NCBI GenBank assembly: GCA_963761335.1
Contig: CAVXGR010000005.1
Span: forward strand, 229,684-293,683
Length of the DNA: 64,000 nucleotides
Source: an uncultured delta proteobacterium
Lineage (GTDB): Bacteria > Desulfobacterota > Binatia > HRBIN30 > BPIQ01
Direction: 5' to 3'
Position 1 is the stretch's first letter; each line of letters begins with the position of its first letter. The notes below the pieces were generated by a model. It was given only the letters and a program-made list of their open reading frames with translations. It was not told where the DNA came from and made no database searches. A program made the translations under genes and the position numbers. Of this stretch, positions 12,336-55,150 are shown one piece after another.

Positions 12336-12830
12336 AGTGGCTCGGTGGCTCGGTTATCGGGTTGTCGGGTTATCGAGTTTTGGTGATGGTAGCCGGTGGG
12401 TTTCAACCCGCGGCTGTGGCGTTTGGGCGCCTGCGCCCCTGACGGGGCGCGTGCAGAAGCCTGCCAATTTCCCCGGGTTTCACCCGGGGCTACACGCCTG
12501 CGCCCCCTTCGGGGGCGGCATCCGAATCGGCCTCGCCTGCGCCCCCTTCGGGGCGGCATCCGAATCGGCCTCGCCTGCGCCCCGGGGGCGGCATCCGAAG
12601 CGGCCGATGGGCGTCCAACCTCGTCGCCGGGGGTTGAACAGTCTGTCTCAAGACCTCGGCAAAACGATTCCGCAAGCCCGCGAACCAAGTAGAAGCGGCG
12701 TCTCGCCGCTTCGGAAAGCGCCGGGACGGCGCTTCTACCTCGGTTTGAGACAGCTTCTGAGACCCCCGGCTACCATCAACAGACCCGCCAACCCGCCAAC
12801 CCGATAACCGAGCCACCGAGCCACCGGCTT
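12336..12830. mobile_element. composite non-autonomous repeat element bounded by 28-bp perfect inverted repeats
   Basis: GTGGCTCGGTGGCTCGGTTATCGGGTT at 12336-12365 is the exact reverse complement of 12797-12826. The interior holds family-B palindromes (CCCCGGGTTTCACCCGGGG, GCGCCCCCTTCGGGGGCG x3) and one full family-A MITE (12643-12752). Confidence 0.6.
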
Positions 12831-14262
12831 ACTTTCCGAACCGCTGCAGCGACATCGGATCGAAGAGATTTTCGCGCAGCGGCACGCGGCGCTGGAAGGG
12901 CGCCTGCGCGTCGGGGCGCATGCCGCCGAGGGTAGCGCGGTCCTCCTTGAAGTTCTCGGCGCAGGCCCAGACCTGGGTGCTGGCGGGCAGCCATTCCTGA
13001 TCCGGCGGTGAGCCAGCGGGATGATTGATCCTCGCCATCGTCTGGTAGGTGTTGATCAGCTCGCCGTTCCAGCTGAACTTCCGGTTCCACGAGCCGTCCC
13101 AGGTCTCGGCGTCGATCCACAGCTCGATGCGGCCGAAGAGGTAGTACTTGTCCTTGGGAGTGGCCTCGATGATCCACATCGGCCGCTTCGCCAGGCCGGC
13201 GTCGATCGGTGCCCAGGGCAGACCGGTCCAGCCCTCCTGGCGGTAGCCGACGGTCGGCGGATTGCGGTCGGTGAGGATGATCCAGCCGCCGCCGGGAATC
13301 GGGTCGATCTTCACCGGGCCGTTCACCGACTCCGGATCGACGACGCGGAGCCCGTCCTTGTGGCCGATCACCTTCCAGGTGAAGTCCTCCGGCTTGCCGT
13401 CGAAGAAGAAGCCGTCGTCGCCGCTGAGGTCGGAGCCGAGATAGCCGTCGGAGCGGTTCGCCGGGCTCACGGCGCGAACGCGGCGGATGGCGGGCACGTA
13501 GGCCCAGACTGAGTCGCGCTTGTCGGGGTCGCGGTAGCGCCAGGTGAGCGAGGCCGTGCCCTCGAGGTCGGCGGGCTTGAGGGCGGCGCCGAGGAAGCGG
13601 CTCTGCAGGTTGAGCGGGTTCGGCTGGCGATACTTGGGGGTCTGGCCGTCGAAGAACTGAAACCAGCCGTCGGCGACGATTTCGCGGTCGACACCGGTGT
13701 GGTTGAGCATGGTGACCAGGGTGCGGTTGTAGGAGTCGCCGCCGTACCAGTACGCCAGGAACTGGTTCCAGGCGATCTTCACCCCGGCCTTGGGGTCGTG
13801 CTCGTCGATCTTCGGGAAGGGAATGCCGTAGTAGAAGTCCGGCTGCTTTCCGGTGGCGCGATCGATGATGGTGCCGCGGTCGTCGACGTCCAGGCGCGTG
13901 GCGTTCTGCTCGGTAGCGTCGAGGAACGACTTCTCCCAGGTACCGGTTCCCAAGGGGTAGTCGATGATCGGGTTGCGGTACTCTCCCTTGGCGTAGTGCG
14001 CCAAGATCTCGGGTGGCAGCAGATCCTTGGCGAGCTGCGCGTTCTCCTTGCCGAGGACGTCGCCCACCTTCAGCCCGGGTGCTACCTCCGCCCCCGCGGC
14101 CGCCGCCTGCGGCGCGGCTTGCGGCTTGGCGGCGGTCGACTGCGGCGTGGGTTTCGCCGCATCGGCGGCGAAGGCGGCGGGCAGCGGCAGCAGCAGCGCC
14201 AGAGCGATTGCGAGACAGCCGGCGTGGTCGCCGGCGTTGCGGATCAAGTATCGGATGCGCAT
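12829..14262 (-). CDS. DUF1329-family periplasmic/outer-membrane-associated protein (lipoprotein-sorting-like)
   Basis: 477 aa with a signal peptide. Size and composition fit the DUF1329 family, which is often linked to uptake of hydrophobic substrates. The assignment is from memory. Confidence 0.55.
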   Translation of the reverse strand: MRIRYLIRNAGDHAGCLAIALALLLPLPAAFAADAAKPTPQSTAAKPQAAPQAAAAGAEVAPGLKVGDVLGKENAQLAKDLLPPEILAHYAKGEYRNPIIDYPLGTGTWEKSFLDATEQNATRLDVDDRGTIIDRATGKQPDFYYGIPFPKIDEHDPKAGVKIAWNQFLAYWYGGDSYNRTLVTMLNHTGVDREIVADGWFQFFDGQTPKYRQPNPLNLQSRFLGAALKPADLEGTASLTWRYRDPDKRDSVWAYVPAIRRVRAVSPANRSDGYLGSDLSGDDGFFFDGKPEDFTWKVIGHKDGLRVVDPESVNGPVKIDPIPGGGWIILTDRNPPTVGYRQEGWTGLPWAPIDAGLAKRPMWIIEATPKDKYYLFGRIELWIDAETWDGSWNRKFSWNGELINTYQTMARINHPAGSPPDQEWLPASTQVWACAENFKEDRATLGGMRPDAQAPFQRRVPLRENLFDPMSLQRFGK

Positions 14263-14454: not shown

Positions 14455-14483
14455 TTGACAAACAAACGTTTGTTCCGTTAAAC
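14455..14483 (+). promoter_or_regulatory. promoter with a TTGACA -35 box immediately followed by the perfect palindrome AACAAACGTTTGTT (putative TetR operator)
   Basis: Palindrome at 14461-14474. TTGACA at 14455-14460. Possible -10 box TTAAAC 17 bp downstream. ATG of the DUF35 gene at 14492. The identical palindrome occurs at 52103-52116. Confidence 0.55.
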
Positions 14484-14491
14484 AACCCCGC

Positions 14492-14968
14492 ATGTCGACG
14501 CGCCCGCATCCGGTGAGCGACTCGGTGGAGCCGATGCACCAGGACATCGTCATGGAGTTTCCGTACACGCGCTCCACCGGCGAGACCGTCGGGCGCTTTC
14601 TCGCCGGTCTGAAGGAGCAGAAGAAGATCTGGGGGCGGCGTGTCGCCGGACAGGGCGTGGTCGTGCCGCCGATCGGCTACTCCGAGATCGACGCCTCTCC
14701 TGCCGGCGAATGGGTCGAGGTGAAGGACAGCGGCGAGGTCACCGCCGTCGCCGTGGTGGAGCAGCCGATCGAGCACCTGCATCCGTTCGCGCAGCGCTTT
14801 GCCTTCGTGCTCGTCCGCCTGGATGGCGCCGACACGGCGATGGCGCACGTGGTGAAGGACGATCTCGACAAGCTGCGGGTGGGAGCGCGCGTGCAGGCGG
14901 TGTGGGCGGCGGACGGGCAGCGCGGCGGCACCATTCGCGACATCGAGTGCTTCCGCGTCGTCGGCTGA
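14492..14968 (+). CDS. DUF35 OB-fold protein (thiolase/aldolase-associated)
   Basis: Size and OB-fold pattern match DUF35 proteins that partner SCP-x / Ltp2-type thiolase-like enzymes. First gene of the operon. Confidence 0.6.
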   Translation: MSTRPHPVSDSVEPMHQDIVMEFPYTRSTGETVGRFLAGLKEQKKIWGRRVAGQGVVVPPIGYSEIDASPAGEWVEVKDSGEVTAVAVVEQPIEHLHPFAQRFAFVLVRLDGADTAMAHVVKDDLDKLRVGARVQAVWAADGQRGGTIRDIECFRVVG

Positions 14969-15015
14969 GAACCGCAAAGGGCGCAGAGAGAGGCGCAAAG
15001 GACGCAAAGAAGAGC

Positions 15016-15516
15016 ATGAACGAGCCGCCCCGGGAGCCGATCACCTACATCAAGACGACGGTGCGGCTGCCGTACCACTACGTCGCCGGCGACTACAAGG
15101 CGCGATATCTGCGCGCCCTGAAGGACAAGGTGATCCTCGGCTCGAAGTGCTCGAAGACCGGCAAGGTCTTCGTGCCGCCGCTGGTGAACTCCCCCGAGAG
15201 CTTCGCGCCGGCGGACGAGTTCGTCGAGGTGCCGGACCGCGGTCTGATCACCACCTTCTGCGTGGTCAACATCCCGGTGATCGGCCGCAACCTCGAGCTG
15301 CCCTACGTCGTCGCCTCGGTCGCCCTCGACGGCGCGGCGCTCTCCATCTTCGCCCTGATCCAGGAGGCGAAGCCGGACGAGGTGCGCATGGGCATGCGCG
15401 TCGAAGCGGTGTGGAAGCCCGATGGCGAGCGCCAGGGCAGCCACGAGGACATCCTCTACTTCCGCCCCACCGGCGAGCCCGACGCACCCCTCGAATCCTT
15501 CATCCACCGCCTGTGA
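15016..15516 (+). CDS. DUF35 OB-fold protein with N-terminal rubredoxin-like zinc ribbon
   Basis: Zn-ribbon-like CSKTGKVFVPP segment followed by an OB-fold. A stop 5 nt upstream separates it from the preceding gene. Confidence 0.65.
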   Translation: MNEPPREPITYIKTTVRLPYHYVAGDYKARYLRALKDKVILGSKCSKTGKVFVPPLVNSPESFAPADEFVEVPDRGLITTFCVVNIPVIGRNLELPYVVASVALDGAALSIFALIQEAKPDEVRMGMRVEAVWKPDGERQGSHEDILYFRPTGEPDAPLESFIHRL

Positions 15517-15521
15517 GATCC

Positions 15522-16640
15522 ATGTCGCTGCGCAACGTCGCCGTCGTCGGCTTCGCCCAGGAACCCATCGTCGCCCGTGACCAGCACCGCACGGCGCAGG
15601 AGATGCTCTACCCGCAGGTGCGGCGGGCGCTCGCCGACTGCGGCGTGGCCCGCGACGACATCGACTACCAGGTGGCGGGCTCCGCCGACTACATCGACGG
15701 GCGGCCGTTCGGCTTCGTCGCCTCGCTCGACTACATGGGCTCCTGGCCGCCGCGGCAGGACCTCCATCTGGAGATGGACGCCGCCTTCGCCGCCTATTAC
15801 GCCTGGCTGCGCCTGCAGACCGGCGAATGCGACACCGCCATGGTGGTGGGCTACGGCAAGACCTCGGAGGGCGAGCCCGACGTGGTGCTGAACCTCCAGC
15901 TCGAGCCCTTCTACCAGGGCGCCATCGGCCTCGACCCGACCTCGACCGCAGCTCTGCAGGCGAGCGCCTACATGGCGCGCAGTGGCGCTACGGATCGCAC
16001 CTTCGCGGAGGTGGCGGCGCGCCGCCGCGCCGCCGGGGCCCGCAACCCCGACGCGCAGGTGCGCGAGCCCGCTTCCGCCGACGACCTGCAGCGCACTCCC
16101 TTTGCGGTGGCGCCGCTGCGCCGTGGATACATCCCTCCCGTCGGCGAGAGTGCCGTCTGTCTCATCCTCGCCGCCGAGGGCAAGGCGGAGCGCATGTGCA
16201 GCAAGCCCGCCTGGATTCACGGAGTCGACCAGCGCGCCGAGCTGCAGACCCTGGGGGCGCGCGACCTGTCGCGCAGCGCCGGCGCCCGGATGGCGACGGA
16301 GAAGGCGCTGGCGATGGCCGGCCTCGAGAGTGCCCGCCAGGTCGATGTGCTCGAGCTGATGGCGACCAACCCCGCCGAGGAGCTGATCCTGCGCGAGGCC
16401 ATGGGCGTTGCGGCGGAGGGAGGCGTGCCGGCGGTGAACCCCTCGGGCGGACCGCTCACCGGGAACCCGCTGATGATGACCGGTTTGATTCGCCTGGGCG
16501 AGGTCTTCCGCCAGCTGAGCGGCGCGGCCGCGGCGCACGCCGTGAGCGGCGCCGAGCGCGGCATCGCCCACGCGGTTGAGGGGCAGTGCCTGCAGCAGAA
16601 CGTCGTCTGGGTTCTCGGGCGAGAGCGGAGGTGGAAATGA
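15522..16640 (+). CDS. thiolase-superfamily protein (SCP-x/Ltp2-like, non-canonical, probable aldolase/lyase)
   Basis: Thiolase fold with an NPSGG motif. At the nucleophile position the sequence reads ..EMDAAFAA.. with no Cys, and the GHP motif is replaced by GNPLMMTG. Confidence 0.75.
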   Translation: MSLRNVAVVGFAQEPIVARDQHRTAQEMLYPQVRRALADCGVARDDIDYQVAGSADYIDGRPFGFVASLDYMGSWPPRQDLHLEMDAAFAAYYAWLRLQTGECDTAMVVGYGKTSEGEPDVVLNLQLEPFYQGAIGLDPTSTAALQASAYMARSGATDRTFAEVAARRRAAGARNPDAQVREPASADDLQRTPFAVAPLRRGYIPPVGESAVCLILAAEGKAERMCSKPAWIHGVDQRAELQTLGARDLSRSAGARMATEKALAMAGLESARQVDVLELMATNPAEELILREAMGVAAEGGVPAVNPSGGPLTGNPLMMTGLIRLGEVFRQLSGAAAAHAVSGAERGIAHAVEGQCLQQNVVWVLGRERRWK

Positions 16641-17788
16641 AGCGGCCGGTCGCCGTCGTCGGCGTCGGGCAGACGCATCACAGCTCGCGCCGGGTGGACG
16701 TCAACACCGCCGAGCTGGTGCGTGAAGCGATCGACCGCGCTCTCCTCGACGCCGGTCTCGAGCATCGCGATATCGACGCCATCATCATCGGCAAGGCTCC
16801 GGACATGCTCGAGGGCATCATGCAGCCCGAGCAGCTCCTCATCGGCGCCGTCGGCGGCCATCTCAAGCCCGTCCTGCGCGTGCACACCGCCGGCTCGGTC
16901 GGCGCCTCGACGGCCCTCGCCGGCGTCACCCACGTCACCTCGGGGCTGTTCGACCGCGTGCTGGTGGTCGCCTTCGAGAAGCAGTCGGAGGGCAACGTCA
17001 TGTGGGCGCTGTCGCCGAACATGCCGTTCACGGCGCCGCTGGTGGCCGGGGCGGGCGGCTTCTTCACGCCCTACATCCGCGCCTACATCCGACTGACGGG
17101 GGCGCCGCCGCACATCGGCCCGATGATCGCCGCCAATGCGCGCGCCAACGCCGGCCGCAACCAGTACGCGCACCTGCGCGAGCCGGTGACGGTCGAGGAC
17201 GTCATGCAGTCGCCGATGCTGTGGGACCCGATCCGCTACCTGGAGACCTGCCCGTCGTCGGACGGCGCCGTCGCCCTCGTGATCTCCAGCGAGGAGCAGG
17301 CGCGCAAGGGGCCGCGCAAGCCGGCCTGGGTGAAGTCGGGCGCCTCCTACGCCGAGGCCATGTGGGTGCCGGGCCGCGATCAGGTGAACCCCACGGCCGG
17401 ACGGGTGTGCTCCAAGGCGGTCTATGACGCCGCCGGCATCACCGACCCCTGGAACCAGATCGACGTCGCCGAGATCTACGTGCCGTTCTCGTGGTTCGAG
17501 GCGATGTGGCTCGAGAACCTCGGCTTCTGCGGCCACGGCGAGGGCTGGAAGATCGTCGACCGCGGCGAGCAGAAGTTCGGTGCGCACCTGCCGATCAATC
17601 CCTCCGGCGGCGTGCTGTGCACCAACCCCATCGGCGCCTCCGGCATGCTGCGCCTCGGCGAGGCGGCGCTGCAGGTGATGGGGCGCGCCGGCGAGCATCA
17701 GGTCGAGGGGGCGAAGGTCGCCCTCGGCCACGCCTATGGCGGCGGTGCGCAGTACTTCGCCATGTGGATCGTCGGCAGCGAGCAGTAG
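16637..17788 (+). CDS. thiolase-superfamily protein (SCP-x/Ltp2-like, non-canonical)
   Basis: ATGA start/stop overlap with the previous gene. NPSGG motif. The nucleophile Cys is absent (HTAGSVGAS) and the GHP motif reads TNPIGASG. Confidence 0.75.
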   Translation: MKRPVAVVGVGQTHHSSRRVDVNTAELVREAIDRALLDAGLEHRDIDAIIIGKAPDMLEGIMQPEQLLIGAVGGHLKPVLRVHTAGSVGASTALAGVTHVTSGLFDRVLVVAFEKQSEGNVMWALSPNMPFTAPLVAGAGGFFTPYIRAYIRLTGAPPHIGPMIAANARANAGRNQYAHLREPVTVEDVMQSPMLWDPIRYLETCPSSDGAVALVISSEEQARKGPRKPAWVKSGASYAEAMWVPGRDQVNPTAGRVCSKAVYDAAGITDPWNQIDVAEIYVPFSWFEAMWLENLGFCGHGEGWKIVDRGEQKFGAHLPINPSGGVLCTNPIGASGMLRLGEAALQVMGRAGEHQVEGAKVALGHAYGGGAQYFAMWIVGSEQ

Positions 17789-17871: not shown

Positions 17872-18684
17872 ATGTCTGAACCGGCCGTCCTCTATTCGAA
17901 GCAGGATCACGTCGCCACCGTCACCCTCAACCGCCCGCAGGTGCGCAATGCCCTCAATGCGGAGATGCTCTGCCGTCTGGCCGACGCCTGGCAGAACATC
18001 ATCGACGACGTCGAGGTGCGCGCCGCCATTCTCACCGGGGCGGGAGAGGACGCCTTCTGCGCCGGCGCCGATCTCGATCGCCTGGTGAGAATGATGCAGG
18101 GGCTGCGGCCACCGGAGGACGAGTTCGACCACCGCATCAAGAACGACGTCACCATCATCTACAAGGGTCTCCTGCGCAACATCGAGGTGCACAAGCCGAT
18201 GGTCGCCGCGGTGAAGGGCTTCTGCGTCGCCGGGGGCATGGAGATCCTGCAGTGCACCGACATCCGCGTCGCCGCCGACGATGCGCAGTTCGGCCTCGCC
18301 GAGGTGAAGTGGAGCCTCTTTCCGATGGGCGGCTCGACGGTGCGGCTGCCGCGACAGATCTCTTACTGTCAGGCGATGGAGATCCTGCTCACCGGCGAGC
18401 GCATCCCGGCGCAGGAGGCGTGGCGCATCGGCCTGATCAACAAGGTCGTGCCGGCGGGAAAGGTGCTGGAGGAGGCGCAGCGCTACGCGTCGCTGCTCGC
18501 CGAGAACGGACCGCTGGCGGTGCAGGCGGTAAAGCGCTCGGTGCTCGCCGGGCTGGGCGTGCCGACGGCGGCGGCGCTCGACAAGGAGTTCGAGATCGGC
18601 GTGCCGGTGTCGATGTCGGAAGACTCGCGGGAAGGGACGAAGGCCTTCAAGGAAAAGCGCAAGCCGGTCTTCAAAGGGAAGTAG
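17872..18684 (+). CDS. enoyl-CoA hydratase/isomerase (crotonase) family protein
   Basis: Crotonase-fold motifs AGADL and GFCVAGGMEIL. RBS AAGGAG lies 8 nt upstream of the start. Confidence 0.85.
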   Translation: MSEPAVLYSKQDHVATVTLNRPQVRNALNAEMLCRLADAWQNIIDDVEVRAAILTGAGEDAFCAGADLDRLVRMMQGLRPPEDEFDHRIKNDVTIIYKGLLRNIEVHKPMVAAVKGFCVAGGMEILQCTDIRVAADDAQFGLAEVKWSLFPMGGSTVRLPRQISYCQAMEILLTGERIPAQEAWRIGLINKVVPAGKVLEEAQRYASLLAENGPLAVQAVKRSVLAGLGVPTAAALDKEFEIGVPVSMSEDSREGTKAFKEKRKPVFKGK

Positions 18685-18949: not shown

Positions 18950-19966
18950 ATGCCCATGTCCAGGCTTGCGGCGGTCCTCTTCGGACTCTTCCTCGGGCTG
19001 GCGCTGGCCGAGGTCGGCGATCGCCTGGTCACCAACGGGCAGCTGTCGCTGCCGCCGCAGTGGTGGGTGAATGACGCAGACCTGATCTTCCTGCACAACC
19101 CGGAGGTCTACCCCCAGACCTTCGTCTACGAGGGGCCGTCGCCGCTGCGCGCCGGCGAGGTGCGCATCGCCTGCCTGGGCGGCTCGACGACGGCGGGATA
19201 CAAGCTGCGCGGCGACCAGATGTGGCCGGCGGTCGCCGAGCGTGAGCTGCGCCAGAAGGGTGTCGACGCCCAGGTGCTCAACGCCGCCGTCGCCGGCTAC
19301 GGCAGTCGCCAGCTGCTGGTCCGCTACCGGCGGGATGTGGCACCGCTCTCGCCCTCATACGTGGTCATCTACGAGGGCTGGAACAAGACGGGTGCCCTGG
19401 TGGATCCGGCGGAGTTCGTTCCCTTCGGTATCGACCTGCCCGGCGAAGGCGTGGCGCGAGGCGCGCTGGTCGGGCTCGGCCGCCACGTTCTGTTGGTGCG
19501 CCACGCCATCGGCGCGGTGAACCGCATCGAAGAGCGCTTCAGCCGCGCCGACTGGAAGCCCGACCAGCATCACGACATCTGGGTCGCCGATATGCGCGCC
19601 CTGGTCCAGGAGATCATTGCCGACGGCCACACGCCGGTGTTCGTCATCTATCCGGCGCTCTACCACGCCGACATGACGCCGGAGGAGCTCGAGATCTACA
19701 AGCCGGAGATCGCCAACTGGAAGTACTACCGCCCCAAAATGCTCTGGGAGCTCGGGCGCAAGCACGACGCCATCCGCTCCCTGGCGGCGGAGAACCACTT
19801 CCCGGTGATCGACGTCGAGAAGCAGCTGAGCGGCTACCGCGGCGCGGCGCGCGCCCGCCTCTTCTTCGACGAGATGCACATGACCCGCGACGGCGAAGAG
19901 CTCGTCGGCAAGATCGTCGGCGACGGGCTGGCGGCGATGATCGAGGCGCGCCGGCGGGCCTCGTGA
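18950..19966 (+). CDS. SGNH/GDSL-type hydrolase family protein, secreted
   Basis: Signal peptide. CLGGSTTAGY (block I, Ser) and DEMHMT (D-x-x-H block V). Confidence 0.55.
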   Translation: MPMSRLAAVLFGLFLGLALAEVGDRLVTNGQLSLPPQWWVNDADLIFLHNPEVYPQTFVYEGPSPLRAGEVRIACLGGSTTAGYKLRGDQMWPAVAERELRQKGVDAQVLNAAVAGYGSRQLLVRYRRDVAPLSPSYVVIYEGWNKTGALVDPAEFVPFGIDLPGEGVARGALVGLGRHVLLVRHAIGAVNRIEERFSRADWKPDQHHDIWVADMRALVQEIIADGHTPVFVIYPALYHADMTPEELEIYKPEIANWKYYRPKMLWELGRKHDAIRSLAAENHFPVIDVEKQLSGYRGAARARLFFDEMHMTRDGEELVGKIVGDGLAAMIEARRRAS

Positions 19967-19970
19967 GCTC

Positions 19971-21326
19971 CTATCGACCCTCGAGCTGGCGCAGCTTCAG
20001 GTAGAGGAGCCCCATCACCAGGACGATCAGCGCCAGCGGAATCAGCAGGTTGCGGCGCCGGTTCCAGGCCTCCTGCAGAGTCGACTTGGCCGAGGCCTCG
20101 GTCTTCTCGGCCGTCTTGATCGCGGCATCGGCGGCCTTGACCACGACGTTGGGGTCGCCGAGGTGGGTGTCGGTGCGCACCTTGATCAGCGCCGGGCGTA
20201 CCTCCTCGTTCAGAGTGTACTGTTCGTCGCTGACCTCCATGCCCATCTGGCTCGCCTTGGTGAGCGTCGCCTCGGCATTGGTCACCACCGTCTGCAGCTG
20301 GTCGATCGCCTGGCGCATCTCCACGGCGCCCTTGTAGCCGTCGCTGCCGGGTTGGTGGCAGCGCCGGCACACGGCGCCTTCGTCGCCGCCGAGCATGAAA
20401 TCGCCGGTGTGGTGGATCTCGTGGTTGCTGTGGCAGGTGACGCACTGGGGCAAACCGAGGCGATCGAAGGCCGCCTTGTGCGGGCTCTTGAGGAAGTAGG
20501 TGGCGTTGTTGACGTGGCACTGGCCGCACACCTCGGCGATGGAGTTCACCCCCGGCGGGTAGGCGCCGTGGTTGCCGTGACAGTCGTTGCACGCCGGCGC
20601 CGAGAAGTCGCGCTGCACGAGGAGGGCCTCGGCGTGAACGCTCTTCTTCCACTTTTCCTCCTGATCGGTGGGGATCTTGTACTCCGCCATGTACTGCGGG
20701 TTGGAGTGGCAGTGACCGCAGGTGTCGGGAACGTTGGCCGGAAAGACCTTCGACTCGGCGCGGTCGGGAGGCAGGATGCCGTGCACGCCGTGGCAGCTCA
20801 CGCAGGTCGCCACCTTCTGGTCGCCGTTTTTCAAGCGCTGGCCGTGGACGCTCGTCCAGTACTGCGACAGCTGATCGGTCGGCAGCTTCGGGTCGAAGCG
20901 GCGCATGTAGGTCTCGTTCGCGTGACAGCGACCGCAGAACTCCGGGATCTGCTGGTGCTTGGGTGCGCCGCGAAAGCCCTTGGCCGGGTCCATGGCGCTG
21001 GGATCCATGACCGTCGGGTCGCCGCCGTGGCAGTCGGCGCAGGAGAGGCCCTTGTCGGCGTGGATGTCGTGCTCCATTCCCTTCACCGGGGCGCCCAGCT
21101 TGTCGGGTAGCACCTTGTGACACTCGATGCAGCTGTTCACCGCCGGCGTCGTTCCCGCCGCCTCGACCGCCGGCGCCGCCGTGGGTGTGGGCGTCGGCTG
21201 GGCCCGGGAGGTACGCGGCCCGAGGGCGACGATCACCGCGCAGCCGAGCGCAACGAGCAGGCAACGCGCCGAGACCGCGGCGAAGCCGTGCCGCGGCGCG
21301 CGCTCAGTAGGGCTTGAGATACGCAA
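19971..21326 (-). CDS. nine-haem c-type cytochrome, membrane-anchored (C-terminal TM helix)
   Basis: Nine CxxCH motifs (CIECH, CADCH, CGRCH, CVSCH, CGHCH, CNDCH, CGQCH, CVTCH, CRRCH). N-terminal signal peptide. C-terminal hydrophobic helix LLIPLALIVLVMGLLYL. Confidence 0.8.
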   Translation of the reverse strand: MRISSPTERAPRHGFAAVSARCLLVALGCAVIVALGPRTSRAQPTPTPTAAPAVEAAGTTPAVNSCIECHKVLPDKLGAPVKGMEHDIHADKGLSCADCHGGDPTVMDPSAMDPAKGFRGAPKHQQIPEFCGRCHANETYMRRFDPKLPTDQLSQYWTSVHGQRLKNGDQKVATCVSCHGVHGILPPDRAESKVFPANVPDTCGHCHSNPQYMAEYKIPTDQEEKWKKSVHAEALLVQRDFSAPACNDCHGNHGAYPPGVNSIAEVCGQCHVNNATYFLKSPHKAAFDRLGLPQCVTCHSNHEIHHTGDFMLGGDEGAVCRRCHQPGSDGYKGAVEMRQAIDQLQTVVTNAEATLTKASQMGMEVSDEQYTLNEEVRPALIKVRTDTHLGDPNVVVKAADAAIKTAEKTEASAKSTLQEAWNRRRNLLIPLALIVLVMGLLYLKLRQLEGR

Positions 21327-22413
21327 GCGACACCATGGTGATGATGAAGACGATGATCAGCACCCCGATCAGCGTGAACACCGGGCTCCGGCGGTCGCGC
21401 GCCGCGTTGCGATCGAGGAACGGGACCAGAAAGAGGAAGAGGCCGCCCAGGCCGAAGCCACAGATGCCGACGATGTCGCCGTCGATGCCGAGAATCTTGC
21501 CGGGCAGATATTTCAAGCTCTGGGACATGAACGTGAAGTACCACTCCGGGTGGATGCCGGCCGGCGCCGAGGCAAACGGGTCCGCCTTGGCGCCGAGCTC
21601 CCAGGGCAGGAAGGTGCAGAGCACGATCAGGACGCCGAGCACACCGAGCCAGAGGATGGCGTCGCGAAGCATGAACCCGGGGTAGAACGGCATCCCCTCG
21701 ACCTTCTTCCCCTTCGACGAGATCGACTCGCTCATCCCCTGGCGCTGGATGAAGAGGAGATGCAGCCCCAGAACGGCGGTGAAGGCGGCGGGCAGCATGG
21801 CGACGTGGATACCGAAGAACCGCGTCAGGGTGGCGCCGCTGACGCTCTCGCCGCCGCGCAGGAGGTCGGCGATGGCGGGACCCACGACCGGCACGAGACC
21901 GGCGATGTCGGTCCCGACTTTGGTGGCGAAGAACGCCAGCGTGTTCCAGGGCAGCAGGTAGCCGGAGAAGCCGAAGGTCATGGTCAGCAGCAGCAGCACC
22001 ATCCCGGTCATCCAGGTGAGCTCCCGCGGCGGGCGGTAGGCCTTCAGGAAGTAGACGCTGAACATGTGCACGAAGACGGTGAACACCATCAGGTTCGCCG
22101 ACCACGAGTGCAGCGAGCGGATCAGCCAGCCGAACGGAACCTGGGTGACGATGAACTGAACGCTCTCGTACGAGCTGTCGGCGCCGGGCTTGTAATAGAA
22201 GAGCAGCAGCAGGCCGGTGGCGACCTGAATGCCGAAGAGAAAGAGGGAGACGCCGCCGAAGTAGTACCAGGTGGAGCTGACGCGGCCTTCCATGGGGACG
22301 GTCTTGTGACGCAGGAACTCGATCGCCCCACTGATGCCGAGACGCTCGTCGAACCAGCGAGCGACCCCAGACCGAGACGGGCTAGGCGCGCCGGGAGACG
22401 ACGACATCCTCAC
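21304..22413 (-). CDS. cytochrome b subunit of a cytochrome bc-type complex
   Basis: Typical cytochrome b helices with haem-ligand His residues (WSANLMVFTVFVHMFSVYF ..) and PEWYF in the C-terminal part. Confidence 0.85.
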   Translation of the reverse strand: MRMSSSPGAPSPSRSGVARWFDERLGISGAIEFLRHKTVPMEGRVSSTWYYFGGVSLFLFGIQVATGLLLLFYYKPGADSSYESVQFIVTQVPFGWLIRSLHSWSANLMVFTVFVHMFSVYFLKAYRPPRELTWMTGMVLLLLTMTFGFSGYLLPWNTLAFFATKVGTDIAGLVPVVGPAIADLLRGGESVSGATLTRFFGIHVAMLPAAFTAVLGLHLLFIQRQGMSESISSKGKKVEGMPFYPGFMLRDAILWLGVLGVLIVLCTFLPWELGAKADPFASAPAGIHPEWYFTFMSQSLKYLPGKILGIDGDIVGICGFGLGGLFLFLVPFLDRNAARDRRSPVFTLIGVLIIVFIITMVSLAYLKPY

Positions 22414-26981: not shown

Positions 26982-27941
26982 TCAAGCGGCGCTACGGGCT
27001 CCGTCGAGACAGCGATGCACCTCGACGGTGACGTGCGCCAGATCGCGGTGGCTCGCCAGGAGCTGCTTGTAGTGCGCCGGCTCACGCGGGTGCTGCGTGA
27101 CCACCGAGATGATTGCCGCCAGGTGCTGCGGGCCGACGCGCCACAGGTGCAGATCGGCCATCCGGTTGTCTGCATCCGCCTCGATTGCCTTCCTGATCGA
27201 CTCGTGGCGCTCCTCACCGGCCTCGGCATCGAGCAGCACGCGGCTGGTGTCGCGCAAGAGCCCCCAGGACCAACGAGCAATCACCACCGAGCCGATCAGA
27301 CCGGTCATCGAGTCCATCCATGTCCAGCCGAAGTACTTGCCCGCCGTCAGGGCGCCGATGGCCAGCACCGAGGTCAGCGCGTCCGCCAGCACGTGGAGGT
27401 AGGCACCGCGCAGGTTGTGATCGTGGTGGTGGTGATCTTCGCCGACAGTGGAGAGCGCGTGATCCTCGCGCAGCAGAACGGCACAGACGATGTTGACGAG
27501 AAGCCCGACCCAGGCGACCGCGATCGCCTCGTTGAAGCGGATCGGGGACGGGGTGGCGAGCCGCTCGACGCTCTCGCCGCAGACCAGGATGGCGACCACC
27601 GCCAGGCCGACGGCGCTGGCGAAGCCGCCGAGCGCCGCTACCTTTCCGGTGCCGAAGCTGTAGCGGGGATCGTCCGCGTGGCGCCTGGCGTAGGCATAGG
27701 CGAAGGCGGCGACGCCCAGGGCGGCGGCGTGCGTCGCCATGTGCCAGCCGTCCGCGAGGAGTGCCATCGAGCCAAACGCCAGGCCGGCGACGATCTCGAC
27801 CACCATCATGGTTGCGGTCAGGCCGATGACCCATCGGGTGCGCTGCTCGCCCCGCGTCTTGATGCCGGTTCCGAACGAATGGCGGTGCCGCCAGGGCTCC
27901 GTGGATTCGAGGTGCATGCTTTCCTTCCTTACTTTGCTCAT
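26982..27941 (-). CDS. cation diffusion facilitator (CDF) family metal transporter
   Basis: Six-TM CDF architecture, His-rich loop HHHHDH and a C-terminal cytoplasmic domain. Confidence 0.8.
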   Translation of the reverse strand: MSKVRKESMHLESTEPWRHRHSFGTGIKTRGEQRTRWVIGLTATMMVVEIVAGLAFGSMALLADGWHMATHAAALGVAAFAYAYARRHADDPRYSFGTGKVAALGGFASAVGLAVVAILVCGESVERLATPSPIRFNEAIAVAWVGLLVNIVCAVLLREDHALSTVGEDHHHHDHNLRGAYLHVLADALTSVLAIGALTAGKYFGWTWMDSMTGLIGSVVIARWSWGLLRDTSRVLLDAEAGEERHESIRKAIEADADNRMADLHLWRVGPQHLAAIISVVTQHPREPAHYKQLLASHRDLAHVTVEVHRCLDGARSAA

Positions 27942-27987
27942 ATCGCCCCGAGCCGCAGCCCTCAAGGTCGACACGGGGCACTTGCCG

Positions 27988-30900
27988 TCACGACGCCTGC
28001 GCCGTGCCGCGACCCTTCCACAGCGCGAAGATGGCCGGATAGACGGTCAGCTCCAGCAGGAACGAGGTCGCCAGCCCGCCGACCATGGGCGCGGCGATGC
28101 GGCGCATGACGTCGGCGCCGGTGCCGGTGCTCCACATCACCGGCAGAAGGCCGATGAAGGTGGTGAGCACGGTCATCAGCTTCGGGCGGATGCGCCGCGC
28201 GGCGCCCTCGACGATGGCCTCGCGCAGGTCCGCCGGAGATCGCATCCGGCCCTCCTCCCGGGCGCGCTCGTAGGCGAGCTTCAGGTAGAGCAACATGACC
28301 ACGCCGGTCTCGGCGTCCAGACCGGCGAGGGCGATGAGCCCCACCCAGACGGCGACGCTGGTGTTGTAGCCGAGCAGGTAGAGGAGCCACACGGCGCCGA
28401 TCAGAGAGAACGGCACCGCCGCCAGGACGATCGCCACCTCGGTCGCCGAGCCGGTGTTGAAGTAGAGCAGCAGGCAGATGAGGAAGAGCGTGACCGGCAC
28501 CACCACCTTGAGGCGCTCCTTGGCGCGCTCGAAGTACTGGAACTGACCGGCCCACTCGAGGCGCAGGCCCGCAGGCAGGCGCACCTGGCGGGCGACCACC
28601 TCCTTGGCCTGCGCGACGTACTCCGCGATCGCCCGGTCCCCGGTGTCGACGAAGACGTAGCCCACCAGGCGGCCGCCCTCGCTGCGGATCATCGGTGGTC
28701 CGGTGGCGAACTCGATGTCGGCCACCTGCCGCAGGGGCACCTGCGCGCCTCCCGGAGTCGCCACCAGCACGCGCTCGAGGGCCGTCGGGTCGTCGCGGAA
28801 ATCGCGAGCGTAGGCGACGCTCACCGGGTAGCGCTCGCGCCCCTCGACGGTCTCGGACACCTGCATGCCGCCGATTGCCGTCTGCACCACGTCGTTGACG
28901 TCGGCGACGCGCAGCCCGTAGCGCGCCGCCGCGGCGCGATCGACTTTCACGTCGAGATAGAAGCCGCCGGTGGAGCGGTCGGCGAAGGCGCTGCGCGTGC
29001 CGGGGATCGCCGCAACCGCCTGCTCGATGCGCACCGCGGTGTCCTCGATGGTCGCCAGATCGTCGCCGAAGATCTTGATGCCGAGTGGGCTGCGAATGCC
29101 GGTGGAGAGCATCTCGGTGCGCGTCTGGATCGGCATCCACCAGATGTTCGGCATGCCGGGATAGCGCAGCGCGCGATCCATCTCGGAGATCAGGTCGTCC
29201 CAGGTCATTCCTTGCCGCCACTGCTCCCGCGGCTTGAGCATTACCACCGTCTCGACCATGCCGATCGGCGCCGGATCGGTGGGTGAGCTGGCGCGCCCCA
29301 TCTTGCCGAAGACGCTCATCACCTCGGGGAACTGCTTGAGCTTGCGGTCCATCGACTGCAGCAGCACGCTGGCCTCGCTCATCGACATTCCCGGCGGAGC
29401 GGTCGGCATGTAGAGGATGGCGCCCTCGTTGAGCGGCGGCATGAACTCGCTCTGGATCTGCAACGCCGCCGGAACGGTCAGGGCCACGGCGATCACCGCC
29501 AGGGCGATGACCGAGCGACGGAAGCGCACCACGAAACGGACCACCGGCACGTAGAGGGCGATGAGAATGCGGTTGAGCGGGTTGGCCTCCTCGCCGCGGA
29601 TGCGGCCGCGCACGAAGATGGCCGCCAGCGCCGGGGTGAGCGTGATCGCCAGCAGCGCCGCGAAGCCCATGGAGTAGGTCTTGGTGAAGGCCAGCGGCCG
29701 AAACAGGCGGCCCTCGACCGCCTGCAGGGTGAACACCGGCAGAAAGGAGACGGTGATCACCAGGAGCGAGAAGAAGATGCTCGGGCCCACCTCCTGCATG
29801 GCCCCGATCAGCACCTGCAGTCGGTCGCCGGGACGGCCGACCTCCTCCCAGACCTCGAGCTTCTTGTGGATGTTCTCGATGATGATGATCGAGGCGTCGA
29901 CCATGGCGCCGATGGCCACGGCGATGCCCCCGAGCGACATGATGTTGATGGTCAGCCCCTGGTAGAACATGGGCACGAAGGAGAGCAGCACGGCCAGTGG
30001 CAGGGTGACGATCGGCACCAGAGCGCTGCGCGCGTGCAGCAGGAAGACGAAGATCACCAGGCTGACCACCAGCATCTCCTCGATGAGCGTGTGGCGCAGG
30101 GTGTCGATCGAGGCCTCGATCAGCCCCGAGCGATCGTAGGTGGTGACCACCTTCACGCCTGCCGGCAGCGTCTTCTGCAGCTGCGCCAGGCGCTCCTTCA
30201 CCGCGCCGATGACGCGCAGGGCGTTCTCCCCGTAGCGCATGACGACGATGCCCCCGACCACCTCGCCGCGGCCGTCGAGATCGGCGAGGCCGCGGCGCGG
30301 CGCCGGACCGAGCTTCACCTCGCCGACGTCGCGGATGTAGACCGGGGCGCCCGTGGTCCCGACCTTCAGCGGCACGAGCTCGAGATCCTGCTTCTTCTTC
30401 ACGTAGCCGCGACCGCGCACCATGAACTCGTGCTCGGAGAGCTCCAACACCTGGCCGCCGACCTCCTGGTTCGACTCGCGCACCGCCTGCACCACCTCGC
30501 GCAGGGGGATGCCGAGGGCCACCAGCTTGTTCGGGTCGAGAAGGATCTGGTACTCCTTGCCGAAGCCGCCGACCGAGGCGACCTCGGCGACTCCGGGCAC
30601 GCTCTCGATGGCGTAGCGCAGGTTCCAGTCCTGCAGGCTGCGCAGCTCCTGGAGGTCGAGCGTGCCGCTCTCGTCGACGAGCGCGTACTCGAACACCCAG
30701 CCGACACCCGTGGCATCGGGGCCGAGGACCGGCGTCACCCCCTGCGGCAGCGCATTGGAGACCTCGTCGAGATACTCGAGGACTCGAGAGCGCGCCCAGT
30801 AGATGTCGGTTCCGTCCTCGAAGATGGCGTAGACGAAGGACATGCCGAACATCGACTGGCCGCGCACGTACTTGATGCGCGGCGCCGCCAGGAGGCTTGC

Positions 30901-31110
30901 GGAGATTGGATAGGTGATCTGGTCCTCGACGATGTCGGGGCTCTGTCCGGGCCACTCGGTGAAGACGATCACCTGCACGTCCGACAGGTCCGGTATGGCG
31001 TCGAGCGGCGATTGGCGCATCGACCACGCCCCCCATGCCGCCAGGGCGGCGACGAAGAGCAGCGTGAGAAGAGGGTGCCGCGCGCAGGCGGCGATGACCC
31101 GGCCGATCAT
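27988..31110 (-). CDS. heavy-metal efflux RND pump, CusA/CzcA family
   Basis: 1040 aa. N-terminus MIGRVIAACARHPLLT with conserved HME-RND blocks throughout. The 279-aa upstream extension of the raw ORF is Arg-rich junk, so the start was taken at the internal Met. Confidence 0.9.
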   Translation of the reverse strand: MIGRVIAACARHPLLTLLFVAALAAWGAWSMRQSPLDAIPDLSDVQVIVFTEWPGQSPDIVEDQITYPISASLLAAPRIKYVRGQSMFGMSFVYAIFEDGTDIYWARSRVLEYLDEVSNALPQGVTPVLGPDATGVGWVFEYALVDESGTLDLQELRSLQDWNLRYAIESVPGVAEVASVGGFGKEYQILLDPNKLVALGIPLREVVQAVRESNQEVGGQVLELSEHEFMVRGRGYVKKKQDLELVPLKVGTTGAPVYIRDVGEVKLGPAPRRGLADLDGRGEVVGGIVVMRYGENALRVIGAVKERLAQLQKTLPAGVKVVTTYDRSGLIEASIDTLRHTLIEEMLVVSLVIFVFLLHARSALVPIVTLPLAVLLSFVPMFYQGLTINIMSLGGIAVAIGAMVDASIIIIENIHKKLEVWEEVGRPGDRLQVLIGAMQEVGPSIFFSLLVITVSFLPVFTLQAVEGRLFRPLAFTKTYSMGFAALLAITLTPALAAIFVRGRIRGEEANPLNRILIALYVPVVRFVVRFRRSVIALAVIAVALTVPAALQIQSEFMPPLNEGAILYMPTAPPGMSMSEASVLLQSMDRKLKQFPEVMSVFGKMGRASSPTDPAPIGMVETVVMLKPREQWRQGMTWDDLISEMDRALRYPGMPNIWWMPIQTRTEMLSTGIRSPLGIKIFGDDLATIEDTAVRIEQAVAAIPGTRSAFADRSTGGFYLDVKVDRAAAARYGLRVADVNDVVQTAIGGMQVSETVEGRERYPVSVAYARDFRDDPTALERVLVATPGGAQVPLRQVADIEFATGPPMIRSEGGRLVGYVFVDTGDRAIAEYVAQAKEVVARQVRLPAGLRLEWAGQFQYFERAKERLKVVVPVTLFLICLLLYFNTGSATEVAIVLAAVPFSLIGAVWLLYLLGYNTSVAVWVGLIALAGLDAETGVVMLLYLKLAYERAREEGRMRSPADLREAIVEGAARRIRPKLMTVLTTFIGLLPVMWSTGTGADVMRRIAAPMVGGLATSFLLELTVYPAIFALWKGRGTAQAS

Positions 31111-32720
31111 TGCCAGTGCTCCATCGCCAGCTTGAGCCGGCTCTCGGCGGCGATCAGGAAGTTCCCGGAGGTGACGATGACATCGCCCTCCTGCAGTCCC
31201 GCGGTGATCTCCACCAGATTTTCGGACTTCTGTCCGATCTCGACGCGCTGCGGCTTGAGGCGTCCCTGGCCGAGATCGAGGAAGACGAAGCGGCGCGCAC
31301 CGGCATAGAGGATCGCCTGCTCCGGGACGGTCAGGCGCTCGCCGAGGTCGCGCTGCAGCTCGACGTTGGCGTACATGTCCGGCTTCAGACGGCGGCCGGG
31401 GTTGTCGAGCTCGACGCGTACGCGGCCGGTGCGCGTCGTGTCGTCGAGGTAGGGATAGACGAAGGCGACGCGCCCGTGCAGGACCTCGCCGGGAACATAC
31501 GCCAGGGTGACCACCGCTTCGTCTCCGGGATGCACCAGGGCCAGCTCCGACTCGTAGACCTCGGCCTCCACCCAGACGCGATCCAGGCCGGCGATGCGGA
31601 ACAGCTTCATGCCCGGCTCGACGGCGGCGCCCTCGACGACGTTCTTCTCGACCACGGCGCCGGACACCGGAGAGAGGATGGGAACATACTCGAGCGGCTT
31701 GCCGGAGCGCGCGATCCGATCGATCTGCGCCTCGCCCAGATCCCACAGGCGCAGTCGCTGCCGCGCCGCGCCCACCAGGTAGTCGGCGCGATCGGGTGCC
31801 GAGGTCTTCGCCGCGGCGCGCCGGCTGGCCAGCGCCGTGAGGAGCTCCTGCTGGGTGGCGTAGAGATCCGGGCTGTAGAGGGTGAACAGCGGCTCGCCCT
31901 TGTGCACCTCCTGGCCCGGAGTGTCGGCGTAGAGAGTGCCGATCCACCCCTGATACTTGACGGAGACGTCGGCGAGGCGGGTCTGGTCGTAAACCACCTT
32001 GCCGACGGCGCGGATGGTGATCGTCAGCGGTCGCCGCTGCACCGGCGCCGTGGTGACGCCGATGGTCTGCCGGCGCTGCGCATCCACCATGATGACTCCG
32101 GTCTCCGCCTCGCTGCGCGTCACCGGCACCAGATCCATCGAGCAGATCGGGCAGGTGCCCGGCTTCTGGCTGCGCACCGACGGATGCATCGAGCAGGTGT
32201 AGTAGGCGATCTCGTCACCGCCCGCGGCGGCGTTCTTTCCGTCGTCTGCCGACCCCGTTCCGGTCGATCCGGCGGTCAGCCCGCGACGGCCGACGGTGAT
32301 GCCGTAGTTGGCCTCCGCGGAAGTGCCGCCGGCGGCGATTGCGACCTGCACCGTCCAGCTGCCCCCCATCGGGAAGTCCAGAGCGGCGATGTAGCGCCCG
32401 CCGCCGAGCGGCGTCACCGGACCCTTGCCGCGCATCTCCGACATGGCGCCCATGGCCGGCATCAGGTAGCCCACCTGGATCTGGGCGTTCTCGACTGGAG
32501 CGCCGAGGGCGTCGGTGAGGCGCAAGCGCAGGGCATTTCCCTTTTCCGCGGGCGGATCGGGGCGGATCTCGGCGGCGATGGTGAAGTCCCCCGCGCGAGT
32601 CTCCACGGTGTTGCCGGGGGGGCGGTCGCAGGAAAGTGGCGTCGCCACCAGGGTGAGCATCGACATGAAGCGCGCCAGCGTCGAAAGGCGCGTGAGCGCA
32701 ATTGACGTGAACATCTTCAT
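31107..32720 (-). CDS. efflux RND periplasmic adaptor (membrane-fusion protein), CusB-like, with N-terminal heavy-metal-binding domain
   Basis: YYTCSMHPSVRSQKPGTCPICSMDLVPV heavy-metal-binding motif. Adaptor beta-barrel and lipoyl regions. ATGA overlap with the pump gene. Confidence 0.85.
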   Translation of the reverse strand: MKMFTSIALTRLSTLARFMSMLTLVATPLSCDRPPGNTVETRAGDFTIAAEIRPDPPAEKGNALRLRLTDALGAPVENAQIQVGYLMPAMGAMSEMRGKGPVTPLGGGRYIAALDFPMGGSWTVQVAIAAGGTSAEANYGITVGRRGLTAGSTGTGSADDGKNAAAGGDEIAYYTCSMHPSVRSQKPGTCPICSMDLVPVTRSEAETGVIMVDAQRRQTIGVTTAPVQRRPLTITIRAVGKVVYDQTRLADVSVKYQGWIGTLYADTPGQEVHKGEPLFTLYSPDLYATQQELLTALASRRAAAKTSAPDRADYLVGAARQRLRLWDLGEAQIDRIARSGKPLEYVPILSPVSGAVVEKNVVEGAAVEPGMKLFRIAGLDRVWVEAEVYESELALVHPGDEAVVTLAYVPGEVLHGRVAFVYPYLDDTTRTGRVRVELDNPGRRLKPDMYANVELQRDLGERLTVPEQAILYAGARRFVFLDLGQGRLKPQRVEIGQKSENLVEITAGLQEGDVIVTSGNFLIAAESRLKLAMEHWQ

Positions 32721-34357: not shown

Positions 34358-34478
34358 GGTCAGAGTTCATGAGAACGAGGGCACCCCACCACCGGGCGCG
34401 GAGATGCGGTATTCGCGCGCCGCGGCGGGCGCGAGCTGAACGGGACGAGGCCGTCCCGCCGTCACCGACCGAGGGTGA

Positions 34479-40058: not shown

Positions 40059-40063
40059 CGCGC

Positions 40064-43305: not shown

Positions 43306-43490
43306 GACTCCTCCAGCTCGGTTTCCTGCTTTGCACGTCTCCGACGTAGGGGCGGGTTTGCCCAGCCAGGCGATGTGCCAGCGTTGCCCCCCGCCGCCGC
43401 GAAAAGGCGCGGCGGAAAAGACGAGGCGCGCGCGAGCGACGGCTGCGAGTGCAGCCGTTCAGCGCGGTCCCGGCGAAGCGGCTGGAGGAA

Positions 43491-52096: not shown

Positions 52097-52122
52097 TTAC
52101 AAAACAAACGTTTGTTCGTCAA
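52097..52122 (-). promoter_or_regulatory. tetR promoter/operator: TTGACG -35 box immediately followed by the perfect palindrome AACAAACGTTTGTT
   Basis: Palindrome at 52103-52116, 15 nt upstream of the tetR ATG (52088). Same sequence and architecture as 14455-14474. Confidence 0.55.
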
Positions 52123-54460: not shown

Positions 54461-54510
54461 CAAGAACAATCAGGCTTGACTGTTTGTTTGTGATTCGCTA
54501 GCTTCACCGG

Positions 54511-55146: not shown

Positions 55147-55150
55147 AGCG

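Follow-up and report, generated by a model that had tools for sequence, protein, structure and literature searches.

A putative heteromeric retro-aldolase module of the Ltp3/Ltp4 type with split, zinc-less DUF35 proteins in an uncultured Binatia-like bacterium

The way in which bacteria strip plant sterols of their C24 ethyl or methyl branch has been inferred from labelling and knock-out experiments. In Actinobacteria, the thiolase-fold proteins Ltp3 and Ltp4 (Rv3523 and Rv3522) are needed for the breakdown of sterol side chains with a C24 branch. In the proposed model they make up a heteromeric aldol-lyase, which cuts the C24-C25 bond once carboxylation and hydration have taken place and releases propionyl- or acetyl-CoA (PMC6678751; PMC10832528). 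The genes ltp3, ltp4 and echA19 belong to the KstR regulon, and a KstR site lies in the intergenic region of Rv3520c and Rv3521 (PMC1995591). This kind of enzyme is defined by genetics and is biochemically uncharacterised; in 2021 Ltp3 and Ltp4 were still listed as 'putative SCP-2 aldolases' (PMC8204306). Two further systems, the steroid C3-side-chain aldolase Ltp2-ChsH2 (6ok1) and the proteobacterial bile-acid aldolase Sal-Shy (9myr), also pair a thiolase-fold protein with a DUF35 domain. Here we describe an operon of five genes, A to E, in a 64-kb stretch of DNA (64,000 nucleotides of contig CAVXGR010000005.1, hereafter the window) from an uncultured Binatia-like bacterium. A and B encode DUF35 proteins, C and D thiolase-fold proteins and E a crotonase. 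We consider it fairly likely, although well short of certain, that the products of A-D assemble into a single thiolase-fold retro-aldolase (aldol-lyase), heteromeric and of the Ltp3/Ltp4 type, with E as its feeder hydratase.

The five genes run in one direction in the order A-B-C-D-E (Table 1). The proteins predicted on the public 473-kb source contig match all five translations exactly, which independently supports the gene boundaries. Pfam profile searches, proposed in a preliminary description of this DNA, identified PF01796 (DUF35 OB fold) in A (2.2e-9, 37.5 bits) and in B (1e-13, 51.5 bits; cut-off 27.1 bits for both), Thiolase_C_1 in C (6.6e-11), Thiolase_C_1 (2.3e-33) and Thiolase_N (8e-7) in D, and ECH_1 (1e-59) in E. 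These matches and the coordinates bear out the order of two DUF35 genes, two thiolase-fold genes and a crotonase gene given in that description. The ATGA coupling that it reported is real at the C/D junction (16637-16640), where the ATG of D (16637-16639) and the TGA of C (16638-16640) share two bases; the B/C junction is a 5-nt gap with no ATGA. A consensus scan of the operon found neither a sigma-70 promoter nor a terminator.

Profile matches place the thiolase-fold proteins close to Ltp3 and Ltp4. D scored 596.9 bits against the NCBIfam model PRK08313, above the cut-off of 514, and the best NCBIfam match of C was PRK07937, at 338 bits and under the cut-off of 419. In a record from Tsukamurella (Mycobacteriales), a PRK07937 protein (593 bits) and a PRK08313 protein (734 bits) are encoded directly after a gene for a 309-aa tandem-DUF35 protein, and their neighbours include an EchA19 equivalog, an acyl-CoA ligase, a P450 and the steroid 3-ketoacyl-CoA thiolase FadA5. 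When the Tsukamurella Ltp4-like protein was used as the query, the matches bore generic names alone and none was explicitly labelled 'Ltp4'. The position of C in this conserved gene order supports its orthology with the Ltp4-like subunit. The arrangement of A-E had not been recognised in the preliminary description, but by gene order and family it is a known one, the tandem-DUF35 (Rv3521-like)-ltp4-ltp3 module with echA19 nearby, here with the DUF35 gene split. The same description had taken C and D as a candidate system of Ltp2 type. On the best reading of the sequences, the closest known family is Ltp3/Ltp4 rather than Ltp2: D passes the PRK08313 cut-off, C is nearest to PRK07937, Ltp2 is a weaker match than true thiolases, and the position of its second catalytic residue, Tyr344, is Asn in D. 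BbsAB, which had been suggested for comparison, is also distant, since D, C and B fall far under the BbsB and BbsA equivalog cut-offs (D 118.9 against 750 for BbsB, C 23 against 750 and B 20.5 against 250).

The likeness to the actinobacterial system of Ltp3/Ltp4, Rv3521 and EchA19 covers the families (PRK08313, and PRK07937 as best match), the gene order (DUF35, DUF35, ltp4-like, ltp3-like) with a stop/start overlap, the missing catalytic Cys, and the association with an EchA19-like crotonase and a CYP125-family P450. It also covers the proposed chemistry, in which a heteromeric aldol-lyase would take off the C24 branch as propionyl- or acetyl-CoA. In contrast to that system, the DUF35 gene is split in two here, B is without the zinc ligands of the actinobacterial versions, and C lacks His280 and His237 and stays below the curated cut-off. 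The host is an uncultured, Gram-negative-type lineage resembling Binatia, the operon lies outside a steroid-ring catabolic cluster and has no ligase or carboxylase gene nearby, and a putative TetR operator, AACAAACGTTTGTT, is found instead of the KstR motif. The lineage-specific variations of this locus are the split and zinc-less DUF35s, the further degenerated C and the different regulator. In the literature searched, DUF35 and Ltp3 occur together in one paper, which draws no link between them.

Close relatives of D number in the thousands. The best 120 all share at least 81% identity with it, and the few named ones come from metagenome-assembled genomes (MAGs) labelled 'Candidatus Binatia', 'Deltaproteobacteria' and, once, 'Burkholderiales'. 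A genome scan from an 8-sequence alignment, with one genome per species, returned 80 loci in Binatia-like MAGs, Acidimicrobiia, Actinomycetes (Actinomadura, Embleya, Spirillospora, Blastococcus), Myxococcota and Spirochaetes. In all 80, C and D stand side by side in the same order, with one or more DUF35 genes upstream. The start of D overlaps the stop of C by 1, 4 or 8 nt in 66 of the loci, and the remaining gaps are mostly 3 nt or less. Across the 80 loci no partner beyond A-D was universal; the recurrent flanking genes were SDR (25), TetR (18), EchA19-like crotonase (17), nitronate-monooxygenase-family (NMO, 15) and CYP125-like P450 (9). The NMO genes lie near A-D in 15 actinobacterial loci (for example L030, 655-1803, and L083, 7233-8336). 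An NMO gene is present in the Tsukamurella sterol cluster too, and the window has a copy at 61080-62081 on the minus strand, ~43 kb from the module.

Alignments confirm that C and D both lack the nucleophilic Cys of thiolases and that Asn replaces the His of the GHP motif in both, as had been noted from the sequence. The nucleophile position is Gly86 in D, where 'HTAGSVGAS' stands opposite 'NNNCSTGS' of zebrafish SCP2-thiolase, and Met85 of 'EMDAAFAA' in C, aligned to the Cys of an archaeal thiolase. The GHP His corresponds to Asn330 in D ('TNPIGASG') and to Asn315 in C ('GNPLMMTG'). At the HDCF position, D reads 'YVPF' with Tyr281, and C reads 'LMAT', neither Tyr nor Cys. All three residues that characterise SCP2/SCP-x thiolases, namely the nucleophile Cys, the HDCF acid/base Cys and the GHP His, are replaced in both proteins.

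The residues of D are strongly conserved among its relatives (n = 78): N330 and H83 are found in every sequence, and G86, Y281 and Y367 in 77 each. The near-invariant stretches are R81-V-H83-T-A-G86-S-V-G, E114-K-Q-S, C205-P-x-S-D-G-A and E279-x-Y281-V-P-F and, in the C-terminal part, N330-P-I-G-A-S-G and H365-A-Y367-G. In C, H82, E84, M85, D86, E278, N306-P-S-G-G, H350, Q358 and N360 are invariant (n = 83). The HDCF position is occupied by His280 in 60 of these 83 sequences, and His237 is present in 79 of 83; in the lineage of the window these have become Met and Gln, respectively. Identity to the Tsukamurella proteins is 40% for C and 58% for D, and within the Binatia-like loci it is 71-75% and 81-85%, so C is, by sequence identity, the faster changing of the two. 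This faster evolution, together with the missing Tyr, is in keeping with a largely structural role of C. We consider D the probable catalytic aldolase subunit and C its probable non-catalytic partner.

Residue roles in Ltp2 were taken from the 2025 paper on Sal, in which Tyr294 of Y294DHF is the base and Tyr344 the acid (PMC12329534). In Sal, Tyr302 and Cys304 of Y302DCY are catalytic, as base and acid respectively; YDHF and YDCY correspond to the HDCF of SCP2-thiolases, and both enzymes have Gly at the nucleophile position (PMC12329534). D has Asn330 at the position of Ltp2's Tyr344 and Pro283 at that of Sal's Cys304. The equivalences of Tyr281 and Asn330 rest on the SCP2-thiolase alignment, on the published motif equivalence (PMC12329534) and on spacing. 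The distance from the base to the GHP position is +50 between the two His of SCP2-thiolase, a value shared by Y294-Y344 of Ltp2 and Y302-Q352 of Sal, and +49 from Y281 to N330 in D, a one-residue deletion. D shares the Gly and the base Tyr with Ltp2 and Sal but neither acid, which suggests retro-aldol chemistry with a different proton donor. Thiolase-like open reading frames with YDHF or YDCY were found in none of the relative loci examined.

Ltp2-ChsH2 shares with this locus the thiolase fold, the Gly at the nucleophile position, the base Tyr and a DUF35 partner, and its retro-aldol release of propionyl-CoA from a tertiary 3-hydroxyacyl-CoA resembles the reaction suggested here. However, Ltp2 is a homodimer of one thiolase-fold protein, whereas two paralogous thiolase-fold genes are present here. 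Its DUF35 is the zinc-binding domain of the MaoC hydratase ChsH2, in contrast to the two stand-alone zinc-less DUF35s and the crotonase hydratase of this operon, and its YDHF motif and acid Tyr344 are represented in D by YVPF and Asn330. Sal-Shy has in common with A-D the missing nucleophile Cys, the Tyr base, the DUF35 cap and an alpha-beta-beta-alpha layout that A-D would mirror. It differs in that the acid Cys304 of YDCY is matched by Pro in D, Sal is a homodimer, and its DUF35, which carries a Cys3His zinc finger, forms a fusion with a MaoC hydratase.

The best Protein Data Bank (PDB) sequence matches of D were SCP2-thiolases (4e-36) and BbsB (6e-33), with Ltp2 (6ok1) at 2.7e-21 and Sal at 1.3e-18. 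An AF2 model of C, built from a diverse alignment, had a pLDDT of 94.7. Its top Foldseek neighbour was the archaeal thiolase of a thiolase/HMG-CoA-synthase/DUF35 complex (6et9_C, TM 0.93), and further neighbours were PhlC, BbsB and SCP2-thiolases; Sal ranked 21 and Ltp2 29. The solved structures nearest to the model are all DUF35-partnered thiolase-fold proteins or SCP2-type thiolases. The DUF35-partnered thiolases closest to it (TM 0.86-0.93) likewise combine thiolase-fold subunits with small DUF35 proteins, but they use a catalytic Cys and zinc-binding DUF35s and catalyse Claisen, thiolytic or Friedel-Crafts reactions. The weaker matches to Ltp2 and Sal, in sequence for D and in fold for C, suggest that C and D form a separate clade of this branch, outside the Ltp2 and Sal families.

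A and B are 36% identical to each other. Both had been described as zinc-ribbon proteins, a label that does not fit either of them. A gave no match to the zinc ribbon PF12172 (zf-ChsH2) and has no Cys in the ribbon region. B scored 18.4 bits against the same profile, under the cut-off of 23.2, and retains one of the four zinc ligands ('CSKTG...SPES' against 'CSKCG...CEHC' of 3irb, in an alignment to 3irb and the DUF35 protein 6esq_E). The ribbon region is free of Cys in 58 of 73 members of the A-type family. The B-type ligands (C-x2-C...C-P-x-D/C) are kept in most lineages (C45 in 60, C48 in 55 and C59 in 57 of 82 sequences); they are gone in the window and in the Binatia-like loci L001 and L003-L005, and retained in Actinomycetota, Myxococcota and Spirochaetes. 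The Tsukamurella 309-aa OB-fold protein contains two PF01796 domains and a single zinc ribbon; its N-terminal half (residues 3-133) shares 38.5% identity with A, and its C-terminal half (residues 147-309) shares 45% with B. In the 72 of the 80 loci where positions could be assigned to both DUF35 units, the pair is split into two genes in 54 and fused in 18.

The top NCBIfam matches of E were PRK07799 (313 bits, cut-off 316) and the EchA19 equivalog (308, cut-off 400). E is 47% identical to the Tsukamurella EchA19, which itself scores 428 bits against the cut-off of 400. Compared by eye with the motif of rat enoyl-CoA hydratase, both catalytic Glu appear to be present ('GGME' and 'GLAEV'). E lies directly 3' of D in the Binatia-like loci L001, L004 and L005. 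The product of EchA19 is a (22R)-hydroxyacyl-CoA that the pathway dehydrogenase refuses, and the authors of that work propose C-C cleavage by an aldolase as the next step (PMC8204306). This precedent supports a hydratase-to-aldolase couple for E.

A perfect 14-bp palindrome, AACAAACGTTTGTT, is located at 14461-14474, ~17 nt 5' of the ATG of A, in a divergent intergenic region common to A and a DUF1329 gene. Allowing up to two mismatches, the window holds two such sites in total, and none were found in 100 shuffles. The two sites are ~37 kb apart and share one layout of a TTGAC(A/G) box, the palindrome, a short spacer and an ATG, which at the second site is that of a TetR gene. The palindrome 5' of gene A is kept with 0-2 mismatches in L001, L003 and L005, and the TetR of the window is 62-64% identical to TetR genes adjoining the module in L001 and L003. 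It showed no specific similarity to KstR or other characterised sterol regulators, and the palindrome differs from the KstR motif listed in PMC1995591. The AACAAACGTTTGTT pair looks like a shared TetR operator joining the A-E and TetR-P450 operons, and the TetR is a putative repressor of both its own operon and A-E.

The best PDB match of the P450 was CYP125MRCA (8vxi), a reconstructed ancestor (583 bits, E 1.9e-174), which oxidises cholesterol at its terminal methyl and has a preference for phytosterols (PMC12100521). Other matches were CYP124, a methyl-branched lipid omega-hydroxylase (361 bits), and Mycobacterium tuberculosis CYP125, a steroid C26-monooxygenase (354 bits). Nine actinobacterial loci encode a P450 49-57% identical to that of the window at a distance of up to ~6 kb from A-D. 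Since the putative operator is common to A-E and a CYP125-family P450, the likely substrate carries a terminally oxidised, branched side chain of sterol-like or isoprenoid type; whether it is a sterol specifically is roughly evenly balanced. The presence of a CYP125/CYP124-family P450 in a Binatia-like genome was unexpected. The putative cyclase that ends the TetR-P450 operon has a 77.5% identical counterpart in L001, where it comes after TetR-ferredoxin next to the module. The DUF1329/LolA-like lipoprotein has an orthologue, 68% identical, directly 3' of E in L001 (10113-11459), and may be an accessory that handles a hydrophobic substrate in the periplasm or at the outer membrane. Its gene accompanies the module in these two Binatia-like genomes, and its position and orientation differ between them.

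Table 1. Features of the A-E operon and of the TetR-P450 operon in the window (positions are those of the window).
Feature	Position	Strand	Length	Description
DUF1329/LolA-like lipoprotein	12829-14262	-		PF07044 7e-34, LolA_like 3e-15; divergent from A
Promoter/operator, putative	14455-14474	+		-35-like TTGACA, then perfect palindrome AACAAACGTTTGTT
A	14492-14968	+	158 aa	Stand-alone DUF35 OB-fold protein, zinc-less type
B	15016-15516	+	166 aa	Stand-alone DUF35 OB-fold protein, paralogue of A
C	15522-16640	+	372 aa	Ltp4-like thiolase-fold protein
D	16637-17788	+	383 aa	Ltp3-like thiolase-fold protein
E	17872-18684	+	270 aa	Crotonase-family enoyl-CoA hydratase, EchA19-like
PF04199 'putative cyclase' protein	48971-49891	-	~306 aa	PF04199 3.7e-20; last gene of TetR-P450 operon
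CYP125/CYP124-family cytochrome P450	50157-51368	-	403 aa	Same operon as TetR gene
TetR-family regulator	51411-52088	-		TetR_N 2e-13, TetR_C_29; heads TetR-P450-cyclase operon
Second palindrome copy, AACAAACGTTTGTT	52103-52116	.		After TTGACG -35-like box, 14 nt 5' of TetR ATG

From the domain families, residue replacements, synteny, operator duplication and P450 family, which were observed directly, we infer a scheme for complex formation, reaction, substrate and repression. E would hydrate an enoyl-CoA with a bulky or beta/gamma-branched chain to a 3-hydroxyacyl-CoA unfit for ordinary beta-oxidation. A C·D pseudo-dimer, capped by the zinc-less A and B (1:1:1:1), would cut the bond between C-alpha and C-beta, and A:B:C:D would mirror the alpha-beta-beta-alpha architecture of DUF35-Ltp2-Ltp2-DUF35. 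Tyr281 of D would take the proton of the beta-hydroxyl, and the acyl-CoA enolate would be stabilised in the former thiolase oxyanion site. The enolate would be re-protonated by an acid other than Ltp2's Tyr344 or Sal's Cys304; D offers the invariant His83, Tyr367 and His365 as candidates, and a residue of C is another. The products would be a ketone or aldehyde and acetyl- or propionyl-CoA. C would serve mainly as a structural partner that shapes a single enlarged pocket. The TetR would repress the operon through AACAAACGTTTGTT, and the same operator would govern the CYP125-family P450. Of the Ltp2-like aldolase pattern seen by the preliminary description in both thiolase-fold proteins, retro-aldol cleavage of a bulky or branched acyl-CoA stands as the best reading, and D has Tyr281 at the base position; C, which has no such Tyr, does not fit the pattern.

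Several observations weigh against this scheme. C falls short of the curated PRK07937 cut-off; E narrowly misses that of PRK07799 and is below that of EchA19. D carries neither of the known aldolase acids. C retains an invariant polar cluster (H82, E84, D86, H350, Q358 and N360) that is unexpected in a pure scaffold. No acyl-CoA ligase, acyl-CoA dehydrogenase, carboxylase or steroid-ring genes are present in the 64-kb window, which leaves the pathway context incomplete. Finally, the literature searched gives no biochemical or structural data on Ltp3/Ltp4-type proteins.

The polar cluster leaves room for a second catalytic role in the same complex. C and D could both be catalytic and act in two steps, D by retro-aldol cleavage and C, for example, by decarboxylation or some other conversion of the beta-keto-acid or carboxylated product that C24-branch removal should yield. 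Besides the cluster itself and the His280 of most C relatives, this is favoured by the weak malonyl-CoA decarboxylase activity of the related Cys-less protein TbSLP (PMC12329534) and by a C28-carboxylated intermediate in the proposed route for sitosterol (PMC6678751). However, C of the window's lineage has Met and Gln in place of the His280 and His237 kept elsewhere, C evolves faster than D and it has no known catalytic motif. We therefore regard a two-step complex as unlikely, although it is the alternative that survives best.

The preliminary description had suggested two pairs, or an alpha2-beta2-type complex. On this alternative, A-D would sort into two independent Ltp2-like alpha2-beta2 aldolases, such as A2C2 and B2D2, and each would be a homodimer with its own DUF35. 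The equal number of DUF35 and thiolase-fold genes would allow it, and Ltp2 and Sal are indeed homodimers flanked by two DUF35 domains (PMC12329534). However, A and B are fused in 18 of the loci and in Tsukamurella and are thereby tied to one particle, C and D invariably lie side by side with translational coupling, and C has no catalytic Tyr. A heteromeric Ltp3-Ltp4 is also what the literature proposes (PMC6678751). The DUF35 fusions, together with the alpha-beta-beta-alpha architecture of Ltp2 and Sal, favour a single pseudo-symmetric A:B:C:D particle, and two separate enzymes seem improbable.

A still less probable explanation is that the module is no catabolic lyase and instead condenses or transfers acyl groups, as do PhlABC and the archaeal thiolase-HMG-CoA synthase, or carries sterols or lipids. 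In fold, C is closest to PhlC and to the archaeal thiolase of the thiolase/HMG-CoA-synthase/DUF35 complex, which points this way, as does the historical family annotation 'lipid-transfer protein'. However, both of these neighbours employ a catalytic Cys, which C and D are without, the Pfam search found no SCP2 sterol-carrier domain, and the module's partners, namely a hydratase, a CYP125-type oxidase and a ligand-type TetR, are those of catabolism. That C and D are ordinary SCP-x/SCP2 thiolases with a catalytic Cys mis-placed in the preliminary description, as the SCP2-thiolases among the best matches of D (E 4e-36) might suggest, is ruled out for practical purposes by the alignments, which show Gly (D) or Met (C) and no Cys at the nucleophile position, 'YVPF' or 'LMAT' at HDCF and Asn at the GHP His, replacements that hold in 77-83 orthologues.

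The unit conserved across phyla has four parts, two DUF35 caps and two thiolase-fold subunits, and this can guide co-expression for its reconstitution. The analysis also names specific candidate catalytic residues. The module is abundant in uncultured soil lineages and appears to be tied there to a CYP125-type oxidase. A wider reading, which we find rather doubtful, is that the four-protein particle is a general 'branch-removal' aldolase in at least five bacterial lineages. It would then represent a third catalytic solution within the thiolase fold, with a Tyr base and an acid other than the Tyr of Ltp2 or the Cys of Sal, possibly acting across the C·D interface, and would take part in Binatia in the attack on phytosterol-like or methyl-branched isoprenoid side chains. 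The CYP125-type oxidase and the module under one TetR operator would give Binatia a previously unrecognised capacity. If true, sterol- or isoprenoid-side-chain catabolism would extend beyond Actinobacteria and Proteobacteria, and new aldolases would become available for steroid synthon production.

The rest of the window encodes metal-efflux systems, cytochromes, an H+-PPase, a DXS-like protein and others. A GDSL/SGNH hydrolase with an N-terminal hydrophobic signal-like segment is encoded at 18950-19966 on the plus strand, 266 bp 3' of crotonase gene E, and is not kept beside the module in other Binatia-like loci. Immediately downstream, at 19971-22413 on the minus strand, the genes of a 451-aa multihaem c-type cytochrome with cytochrome c7/c3 motifs and of a 369-aa cytochrome b overlap, and the pair looks like an unusual bc-type respiratory module. 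Two neighbouring RND efflux systems, at 27988-34366 and at 36852-43458 on the minus strand, comprise an AcrB-type pump, an HlyD_D23 fusion protein with HMBD repeats, which bind heavy metals, and an outer-membrane factor. Together with a cation-diffusion-facilitator gene at 26982-28046, they resemble a metal-resistance island. A second TetR gene followed by a fatty-acid-hydroxylase/sterol-desaturase-family gene (PF04116) lies at 54502-56014 on the plus strand, just past the DXS-like gene, which runs divergently from the TetR-P450 operon. This pair may add further lipid-modifying capacity.

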